A stretch of DNA of 63,791 bases, the filler included, from Reticulomyxa filosa (Eukaryota; Protista; Foraminifera): NCBI GenBank assembly GCA_000512085.1. It is 15 parts of 15 records of this genome, joined end to end, with 100 filler letters (N's around TTAATTAATTAA, not from the genome) between each part and the next. Parts side by side here need not be neighbours in the genome. Positions count along the whole stretch, not along the records: positions 7,335 to 12,277 come from ASPP01049889.1; 14 more parts are not named here. One strand, given 5' to 3'. The position numbers and the translations under genes are program-made. Under the pieces are notes generated by a model. The model was not told the DNA's origin and did no database searches. It saw only the letters and a list, made by a program, of their open reading frames with translations. How positions within the stretch are numbered: the stretch's first letter is position 1; every line of letters begins with the position of its first letter. This document shows positions 7,335 through 9,819 of the stretch, piece after piece.

Positions 7335-9819
7335 ATATACTGATCATATAGTACCCATGTCAATAATATCATTTGTGTGTATTCATCTTCGCTCTCTACT
7401 TTTGCATTCCATGCACATTCTTCTTTATGTGTTTTCTCATCTATAGAAAACTTTATTGTAGATCTTGAAAATAAAAGTTCACGTTCATGTTTAAAAGGGG
7501 ATATCCATGATACATCGCAGCTATAAATAGTGCGTGCTCTCCTCATAGAAGGATGAAAATGTAAAATACATCCTTGATCACTTCTATACATTCTTGCAAC
7601 TTGTATATCATCAGAAGTACTTACATGACTTATGAAATTTCCTGCCTTGATTTCTTTTTCAATATTCTTCAATCTCACTCCTTTCAATCCACAATATAAT
7701 TCCGTTTCACTTTCTTCTCTTCTTTCATGTGAGTGAAGTATCATGATAGATTCCTGCAAAAACCTATCCAAATAAGGCCATCTATGATGTCTAAATTGGA
7801 TTTGATCATAACTGAATTCAGTGTTACATGATTTACCACAATACAATAAAATCGCACAAATATGATGTAATTGAAGTGGATATCCCATTTGTTTATGAAT
7901 ATCATCATGATACAATATCTTCAATTCATTTAATATTGTTAATATTTTATCATTCAATATCAATTTACCATTTTCATCCTTTTCACTATAATTTATTTCT
8001 TGTTTGATACTGTCATAAAATTGTTTTTCTTCTTTTTTATTATTTGCGTATTGAAATGTGATTAAATCACATAAATAACCATTCTTTATCATTTCGTGGA
8101 ACAGTTTCTGCAAAGGGCTGTTTCTCGTAATCTTTACATATATTGTATCTCGAATGATTTTGAGTTTATGCAAATCACATTCATACAATAAGGGATTGAA
8201 TCTAGGTTTTTTATTTGATGAAATAATCATATCTTGAAATTGCACACTCTTTGGTAAATTGCTTCTTTCAATACCAATTGTGCGTTTGTATGGTACTATG
8301 AAATATCCTTTTATTTCCCAATGTACTTGAATAATTGGATAATGAGGAAGATATTTGTAAATATCATATAATAATACATCTTTATTTAGTATAGTTGATG
8401 ATATTTCTGGACTCCATTTATGAAATTCACATTGAAAATATAGCACTTCATCTCCTCCATTTATGAAATGATTTCTCATTTGTAATTTATCTTTTACATA
8501 TTGCATTCCTTGTTTCAAAGTTATTGAATATGGATTCAATGACTCTTTATGCGTTCTATTATCTAAATCTTTCCAAATGACGTGAAAAGAGTTGAACTCC
8601 TGTGTGTTTGAAATGTGAGTATAACAATTCAACAATTGATAATTGATACTCGATAAATATATATATATATATATATGTACGTTTTTTTGCTTTCATTAGC
8701 TGATATGCAAGTTGATAAATCATCTCTATCCCCATAATCAATTGTACGGAAGTGCCAAGTATGATTGAGAATGAGACAGGCCCATTTGGAATGTGTTTGA
8801 TGAATATCAGAATGACTATACCATTGAATATGAACATTGAATTCCAGTGATAATTTGTTTGGATTTCCAAGTTGTAATGATTTTATTTTGAATTTACTTT
8901 GATCAAATAACATTATTGTTCGATGCTCATAATCAAATATACTTTCATAATCTTTCCATTTTCCATTTGATAGCATACACACTCTTCTTGGAATATGATA
9001 TCTGGTTTTATATCTATTTGAAATAATTAATTGATCATATCATTTATATCATGTGTTTTATTAAGGCAACATAATAAACATACATTATTTGTAGATTGCC
9101 CAATGCTTGATAACACTTCCATGTATGTAATAATTGAATCTCATCATATTGATAATACCAATTATTATCACTTCCTTTTTTGAATCCAAAATATTGCAAA
9201 AGTTCTTCCGTGTCTGCAAATATTTCCTCAAAATTTGCATCCATTTGATAACATTTCGAAAGTAGGTAGTTATATAAAGCTTGGTAGTTAATTTGACGAT
9301 ATTTGATATGTTTGGGATGTTTCAAAATATTCCACAAAATATGCAAACATATTTCTTGAGATATTGCCGATCCATCTCTTTTTTTCAATCTATCTATTTA
9401 TTAAAATCTTTGTATTATTTTAGTTTACTATATTGTATTCATGTTTAACTTATTCAAGTCGAAAGCTGCACAAATCTCTTCTAATTTAATGTGTGTATCA
9501 ACGAAAATTTGATTGTAATTTCTCCATGTCTGTGATATTGTTGTTTTTCCAAGTTTATCGCCAAATATTTTGAATAAATGCACCAAATGACATTGTTGCT
9601 GTAAAGTTGTGCTGTATTAAAAAGCGAAGAATAATTTGTTAAAAAACATATTGTCATTGAAAAGAGACCAGAAAATACAGAAATTTATTATTACGTGTTT
9701 TCTGTTATCCACGTTAAGACAGTCTTTATCTCTTCGATATTCTCACGACACCAGTTGAATACATCTGAAATGATCTCTTCACCTATTTTGGGAAATGTTT
9801 GTTGAAGTTGTGCAAGCAT
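7335..9819 (-). CDS. CUE-PUB-PH-like-Ubl-like-ADP-ribosyltransferase (ARTC/R-S-E-clade fold) protein; 3' truncated
   Basis: ATG at 9819: MLAQLQQTFPKIGEEIISDV (CUE). PUB exon ~9390-9065. PH-like exon ~9015-8695. Last exon ELYCGLKGV...FISHVSTSDDIQVA...DVSWISPFKHERELLF gives the ART beta1 (R replaced by C), STS and ExE motifs. Confidence 0.8.

Follow-up and report, generated by a model that had tools for sequence, protein, structure and literature searches.

The signature arginine is treated as defining for cholera-type ADP-ribosyltransferases (ARTs), and in canonical enzymes the part of the domain that holds STS and E-x-E recognises the acceptor arginine. In the altered mono-ART XopAI of Xanthomonas, the NAD-binding arginines of the arom-R and aliph-R motifs are changed and E-x-E is kept, and the authors, who report that it binds an Arg peptide, could not conclude whether it is an enzyme (PMC6829252, in the sections consulted). 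CteC, which the sequence-only reading of the locus described here had cited as an R-S-E toxin, is instead a D-E class ART, and together with RhsF it illustrates that a non-canonical triad need not deprive an ART of activity (PMC13324451, consulted in part). According to the accessible portion of PMC10789625, the inactivity of an ART is hard to establish from sequence. Among PUB domains, the pocket for the p97 peptide is YxxN(x)9Y plus R55 and N58; mutation of R55 abolishes binding by the PNGase PUB, and the SPATA2 PUB, which has Val for the first Tyr, bound no such peptide, as far as the excerpts used of PMC6995525 go.

The window analysed here, a stretch of 63,791 nucleotides, consists of 15 contigs of 1.2-13.9 kb each, with N-spacers between them. 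It comes from Reticulomyxa filosa, a giant freshwater amoeba-like protist that belongs to the Foraminifera, a group with, to our knowledge, almost no molecular characterisation. On the minus strand of one contig (7335-12277, 4943 bases) we found a CUE-CUE-PUB-PH-Ubl-ART gene whose five spliced exons (9819-7335) give 723 codons with no stop, or a protein of at least 723 amino acids; the gene is truncated at 7335 by the contig end, and full-length paralogues are about 130 amino acids longer. The motifs that the sequence-only reading had quoted are all present where it placed them, on the minus strand, and profile matches and predicted folds agree with the domain order CUE-PUB-PH-Ubl-ART that it proposed (Table 1). 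Introns 1-3 are GT-AG; the donor of intron 4 is GC, and another copy in the window, copy 1, has GT at the same site. An alternative in-frame GT donor at 8649 gives an open frame of 740 codons, and the 8649-8700 stretch carries an (AT)n run of intron 4 with two possible donors. The splice points agree with those of full-length paralogues such as P0087 and P0095. The closest homologue is P0001 (RFI_40141, Reticulomyxa filosa), the NCBI model of this locus, which we discarded as a gene structure; it goes without exons 1-3 and has the E-x-E stretch removed from the open frame, and its Ile-Tyr repeat is the (AT)n run of intron 4 read as exon. The window gene is real and probably intact.

Table 1. 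Features of the ART family in the window, in window coordinates.
Feature	Position	Strand	Basis
Exon 1, first CUE-type three-helix domain	9695..9819	-	Pfam CUE, helices in paralogue model, junctions
QTFP motif in exon 1	9801-9790	-	
Exon 2, second CUE-type repeat	9450..9611	-	hhalign against repeat 1; helical in model
Exon 3, PUB-fold domain with altered p97-peptide pocket	9084..9389	-	P0115 model, Pfam PUB, pocket counts
Exon 4, PH-fold domain, GC donor at its end	8701..9013	-	Paralogue model, splice check
Exon 5, first part, integral ubiquitin-like (beta-grasp) domain without terminal di-glycine	8297..8599	-	Window's own model
Exon 5, second part, ARTC-fold domain, cut at 7335	7335..8191	-	AlphaFold2, Foldseek, fold search
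Ile in place of the second NAD-binding Arg	7801-7799	-	
Cys in place of the signature Arg	7693-7691	-	
STS motif	7621-7613	-	
PN-loop Arg	7585-7583	-	
E-R-E motif	7486-7478	-	
Copy 1, exons 1-4 (CUE, CUE, PUB, PH), other contig, cut by window start	56..1178	-	
Relic of ART C-terminal part, E-R-E kept, 49 codons then stop	42031..42180	+	tblastn E 1e-11 to 1e-12

Copy 1 has exon lengths identical to those of the main copy, 67% amino acid identity and no stops. A dN/dS comparison of the two over exons 1-4, which the sequence-only reading had suggested, gave 0.55 (bootstrap 0.40-0.77) and indicates that these exons are under purifying selection. The third of the three copies announced for the window is a relic, followed by WD40-like remnants and lying on a contig other than that of the main copy; since the copies sit on three different contigs, we discarded a tandem cluster. 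The large expansion that had been predicted was borne out. A search with the last exon returned 85 proteins among 1624 candidates, 83 of them named R. filosa, and a search for longer proteins returned 22 among 2597, all 22 from R. filosa, which makes 105 named R. filosa paralogues (83 + 22); this number leaves out shorter proteins and, since many matches are partial, counts annotated pieces rather than intact genes. Many of the paralogues are partial or degenerate, an ART is called by name in 2 of the 107 matches (P0011 and P0053, going by the database names shown), and Kelch/WD40 or TPR repeats are fused in 6 of the 22 long paralogues. Single-pattern scans, which are weak for distant relatives, gave 22 pattern matches in prokaryote genomes and 24 in viral contigs, none of them confirmed. 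P0219 carries a MAG label and was discarded as a bacterial donor; it sits on a 945-base contig and was read as likely mis-binned. Directly upstream of the ART gene, on the same contig and strand, lies a WD40 gene (10338-11520, minus strand), and a short upstream frame looks by eye like the linker that precedes the WD40 repeats in fused members such as P0113.

We modelled the last exon of the window gene with AlphaFold2 on an 89-row alignment (mean pLDDT 88.4, pTM 0.89). Foldseek returned 15 matches at E<=0.001, headed by ExoS (E 5.6e-6), XopAI, Vis, ExoT and ART2.2. The fold search gave ART2.2 at Z 14.8 (rmsd 3.1, 196 aligned), HopU1 at 14.1, XopAI third at 13.4 (rmsd 3.9 over 204), an ART toxin/immunity entry at 13.3 and ExoS at 12.4, and the ART fold proposed for this domain thus held up in both comparisons. 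Residues 2-103 of the same model matched Ubl/PB1/UBX entries at a middling Z of 5.5-6.5, consistently over about 29 rows of the fold search (rows 22-50, nearly all Ubl/UBX/PB1/FERM-F0 by title; best example 5zmb, Z 6.5, rmsd 2.8 over 77). At the sequence level, the R. filosa profile drew a single non-significant match among solved structures (E 0.95), a wider profile found ART2.2 weakly at E 0.076, and Pfam returned no family at E<=1 for the ART, PH and Ubl parts of the window exons. Taken with the N-terminal models described below, the predicted structures support PUB, PH, Ubl and ARTC folds in the family.

Among 103 R. filosa matches to the ART domain, we used the 58 complete cores and set 45 aside. 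At the signature place, fixed by alignment to YRG of ART2.2 and FRG of P0179, these cores have Cys in 49, Ser in 4, Tyr in 2, Gly in 2, Phe in 1 and Arg in none, so the Arg-to-Cys change first noticed in the window is family-wide. The places of N87, R91 and R126 were taken from the weak wider-profile alignment to ART2.2 (E 0.076), and on that alignment the second Arg place (R91, aliph-R motif) has Arg or Lys in 0 of 53 R. filosa sequences and the place of N87, a phosphate-binding residue, has Asn in 3 rows. S-x-S and E-x-E are both kept in 44 of 58 cores, and in the window copy, and partly lost in the other 14, among them long intact frames such as P0095; the second Glu is present in 54/58. 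Ranked over 144 columns, conservation of the first Ser falls at the 40th, of the first Glu at the 38th and of the second Glu at the 72nd percentile. The PN-loop carries Arg or Lys in 53/58 R. filosa cores against 4/108 in a sister clade (best 120 of 204 matches), and basic residues stand three and six places after the Cys (Lys in 49/58, Arg in 51/58). This PN-loop Arg/Lys could replace the lost phosphate contact. Across the sets compared, the signature Arg is present only in P0109, a natural R. filosa paralogue with a PUB-PH-Ubl-ART-tail layout, and in P0179, which carries both arginines. A PUB-PH-Ubl layout had also been read by eye in P0179 and was dropped, the family HMMs giving no support.

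Compared with the R-S-E ARTC mono-ARTs (ART2.2/ExoS/HopU1/Tre1, PF01129), the predicted domain is alike in fold (Z 12-15), in STS and E-x-E, in the Tyr-x-Gly frame of strand 1 and in the LY(T/C)G helix. The window sequence has STS for S-[TS]-[STQ] and ERE for [QE]-x-E, whereas strand 1 reads Y-C-G where [YFL]-R is expected and Q-I stands in place of aliph-R, leaving Cys for the signature Arg and Ile for the second Arg. Other differences are an N-terminus without an evident signal peptide and, in R. filosa, fusion to CUE, PUB, PH and Ubl in more than 100 copies. By the defining Arg, the window family is not an R-S-E member. XopAI is closer in having both NAD-binding arginines replaced with E-x-E kept in the same fold subgroup, but it has FTG / VLE / AAS and an acidic cleft, whereas the R. 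filosa family combines YCG / QI / STS with a PN-loop Arg, its STS being unaltered and its second Arg place free of acidic residues; the XopAI signature FTG / VLE / A[AT]S is absent from the window copy. XopAI is moreover an injected effector and the R. filosa protein a host protein, and since their identity is only 7-11%, the arginines were probably lost separately. By analogy, the R. filosa ART may work most like the altered domain of XopAI, without being a member of the XopAI type. SidE and CteC share an ART fold in a ubiquitin setting (SidE at Z 9.3); no phosphodiesterase domain was detected in the R. filosa protein, and the family gives no sign of ubiquitin as a substrate.

In the N-terminal half, the second helical unit of the sequence-only reading is present and turned out to be a second CUE-type repeat, the two units being repeats of each other (hhalign probability 93.6, E 2e-7). 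The CUE-type assignment rests on profile matches, and the first repeat passes Pfam CUE in copy 1 only (25.5 bits, above cut-off, E 1e-5), the window exon 1 scoring 13.3 bits against a cut-off of 21.1 (sub-threshold, E 0.069). Within the F-P motif, Phe is found in 35 of 38 rows and Pro in 21 of 38. For structure we used a model of paralogue P0115 in place of the window exons (pLDDT 92.6, pTM 0.81). No CUE structure stood among the matches listed for the N-terminal paralogue models, PH entries filling the list; such entries fill most rows of the P0115 fold search, with Z up to 8.2, the value obtained for pleckstrin PH 2i5c (rmsd 2.4 over 86). The PUB fold was matched at Z 7.4-7.6 and rmsd 1.8-1.9, as with PNGase PUB 2hpl (Z 7.5, rmsd 1.8 over 85/100 residues), and window exon 3 reached 20.5 bits with Pfam PUB against a cut-off of 34.3 (sub-threshold, E 4.6e-4). 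The C-terminal unit of longer paralogues, absent from the window, gave a CUE/UBA-like lead (hhalign probability 22.7, Atlas feature scores 0.76-0.77). The CUE pair could plausibly bind ubiquitin.

The PUB domain shares its fold, N-x9-Y and the company of ubiquitin-binding and Ubl domains with the p97 cofactors PNGase, UBXD1 and HOIP and with SPATA2. Unlike in p97-binding PUBs, the first Tyr of the pocket is Ile or Val, as in SPATA2, and the R55 place is never Arg. In the 67 of 91 rows that cover PUB, numbered through a constant offset of the structural ranges with no gap assumed, the first Tyr place has no Tyr (Ile/Val/Met in all), Asn and Tyr of N-x9-Y are each present in 65, Arg at R55 in none and Asn at N58 in 5. 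Since the first Tyr and R55 are missing in 67/67, canonical binding of the p97 tail is doubtful, and the link to p97 that had been drawn from the PUB domain is unsupported. The PH domain presumably lacks the basic phosphoinositide motif, which makes protein docking its likelier use.

The loss of the signature Arg is common to a much wider foraminiferan clade, with Ser or Thr in its place, which the sequence-only reading missed. Run against 1.84 billion representatives, one profile yielded 507 matches at E<=0.001, the best 150 of which were used; a second profile yielded 204, the best 120 of which were used. The 30 relatives that were looked up include 11 from Bolivina argentea, 4 from Nonionella stella, 1 each from Ammonia and Elphidium, 3 from R. 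filosa, 1 MMETSP transcript (an origin taken from record names) and 1 MAG-labelled fragment; the Bolivina and Nonionella sequences are presumably of transcript origin. For the best 120 of 204, we counted 108 complete cores of 136 matches and found Ser in 71, Thr in 33, Cys in 3, Tyr in 1 and Arg in none at the signature place, with E-x-E at 108/108 and 107/108 and the second Arg kept in 103/107. The catalytic columns of this set rank at the 98th-100th percentile of 138 and are the most conserved of the domain, so the catalytic residues stay constrained when only the signature Arg is lost; the contrast with R. filosa is partly one of ascertainment, the R. filosa set being genome annotation with dead copies and the sister set profile-ranked and largely transcript-derived. 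The marine branch of the clade may still be catalytic.

Among 28 sister proteins picked from 107 new ones, 11 pass Pfam ART, 6 PH and 2 ubiquitin, and Pfam PBZ gave one sub-threshold match. A PBZ-like pattern, C-x5-C..H-x5-H, precedes the ART in 78 sister-set proteins (best 120 of 204), as a pattern lead only, and occurs in 0 of the 107 proteins of the R. filosa searches. A quick tree of 60 sampled rows set the R. filosa and sister branches apart (SH-aLRT 92), with a short branch for the window ART (0.12); since the tree is unrooted and has long branches, on which P0179 and P0162 lie, we claim no root or order of Arg losses. The R. filosa family likely arose from this Arg-less foraminiferan ART clade. 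Arg-less ARTs are also seen fused to a RING and an RZ finger (P0222, Bolivina), to Skp1 (P0297, Nonionella), to a CNH/Vps39-like region (P0245) and to SAM domains (P0277), and some of these fusions could be assembly chimaeras. The Ubl-finger-ART module is tandemly duplicated within one protein in P0199, P0193 and P0206, and in P0193 the signature place of the second ART reads Y-Y-P.

Since both NAD-binding arginines are missing, the window protein is likely an adaptor rather than an ADP-ribosyltransferase, and the explanation that we favor, with our confidence evenly divided for and against it, is that the R. filosa proteins are XopAI-like altered ARTs that act as non-transferring adaptors in ubiquitin-linked signalling. 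Starting from the observed open spliced frame, family size and residue changes and from the predicted folds, we infer binding steps in which the CUE pair, with a possible third CUE/UBA-like C-terminal unit in full-length paralogues, would bind ubiquitin; PUB and PH would offer protein-docking surfaces, probably with no canonical p97-tail site; an Arg-bearing peptide or small ligand would be held in the cleft with STS and E-x-E, much as in the altered domain of XopAI; and fused Kelch, WD40 or TPR repeats would supply variable recognition in some paralogues. The loss of both arginines, the average conservation of the catalytic columns, the 14/58 degenerate cores and the XopAI precedent count for such an adaptor, whereas the 44/58 cores, and the window copy, that keep S-x-S and E-x-E count against it, as does a CUE Pro kept in only 21/38. 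The earlier remark that the Arg change might mark a pseudo-enzyme is thus favored by the data, whereas ADP-ribosylation of ubiquitinated or p97-bound targets finds no support, both NAD-binding arginines being gone throughout the R. filosa clade. Variable repeats and the birth and death of copies suggest a role in defence or surveillance, which is drawn solely from expansion, turnover and domain company.

That the protein is an arginine-directed mono-ART, or an NADase, still active through a rewired phosphate clamp and brought to ubiquitin-marked targets by CUE and Ubl, is possible but in our view doubtful; it is what the sequence-only reading mainly proposed, less the p97 step. The PN-loop Arg/Lys (53/58) and the Lys and Arg that closely follow the Cys (49/58 and 51/58) would then replace the lost arginines, with S-x-S and E-x-E intact in 44/58; the sister clade keeps E-x-E (108 and 107/108, best 120 of 204) without the signature Arg, and P0109 has that Arg in the same layout. 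This activity is hard to reconcile with the joint absence of both arginines and the Asn and with catalytic columns of average conservation in the R. filosa clade, and the literature consulted, part of it in excerpt, offered no example of an ARTC that is active while lacking both arginines. We consider it improbable that the cleft is a ligand sensor in which NAD+, ADP-ribose or ADP-ribosylated arginine is bound but not converted, the ubiquitin-binding part being turned on in response, as it might be when bacterial ART toxins have done damage. The residues on the nicotinamide side are retained, the PBZ-like pattern of 78 sister proteins (best 120 of 204) ties the clade to ADP-ribose, and the model shows Ubl and ART as a single rigid body (pTM 0.89), but the lost residues are the phosphate-binding ones, and the finger pattern is absent from 107/107, with Pfam PBZ sub-threshold in 1/28. 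Little credence goes, likewise, to the window copy being a young pseudogene of a fast-turnover family. The GC for GT at the intron 4 donor, the relic in the same window and the many partial or degenerate paralogues would fit such a fate, but 723 codons run without a stop or frameshift, a fallback in-frame GT donor exists, exons 1-4 have a dN/dS under 1, and in the tree the ART sits on a short branch (0.12).

Other genes in the window were noted in passing. A single open frame of 2355 codons (14963-22030, minus strand) holds ankyrin repeats, a DUF294-type nucleotidyltransferase (E 1e-10) and repeats of the LRR-like and HEAT types. It showed no Walker A pattern, and its layout resembles a repeat-based sensor joined to a nucleotidyltransferase. 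There are also a caspase-fold protein with His-Gly and an Asp-Val-Cys motif (61148-62119, minus strand; Peptidase_C14, E 8e-18), a myosin TH1 domain followed by a protein kinase domain (25682-27133, plus strand), and a Ras/Roc-type GTPase start with a CAP-Gly domain on the same strand, which may together form a single gene (33081-36073, minus strand).

No description of the ART family was found in the openly accessible literature on Reticulomyxa or foraminifera that we searched, and the consulted parts of PMC4245714 and PMC11354881 do not treat it. Within that literature, the foraminiferan ARTC-fold clade is undescribed. It is a eukaryotic clade of several hundred proteins without the signature Arg, one branch of which keeps the catalytic glutamates almost without exception and the other does not. 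A bolder reading, which we hold less likely than not, is that cytosolic ARTs of an [S/T/C]-S-E class, large and so far undescribed, work in foraminifera without the signature Arg; combined with PH, Ubl, PBZ-like, CUE, PUB, RING and RZ-finger domains, they would form an innate immunity that links ADP-ribosylation to ubiquitin, with the hundred-copy branch of Reticulomyxa as rewired enzymes and decoys. The signature kept by the marine relatives would be compatible with activity, in an enzyme type not yet described. Were the R. filosa branch merely inactive, it would still be a sizeable unannotated protein family, of narrower interest. The two branches offer natural pairs for testing the need for the Arg and the origin of pseudo-ARTs, and the family is a first concrete candidate for a ubiquitin- and ADP-ribose-linked defence in Foraminifera.
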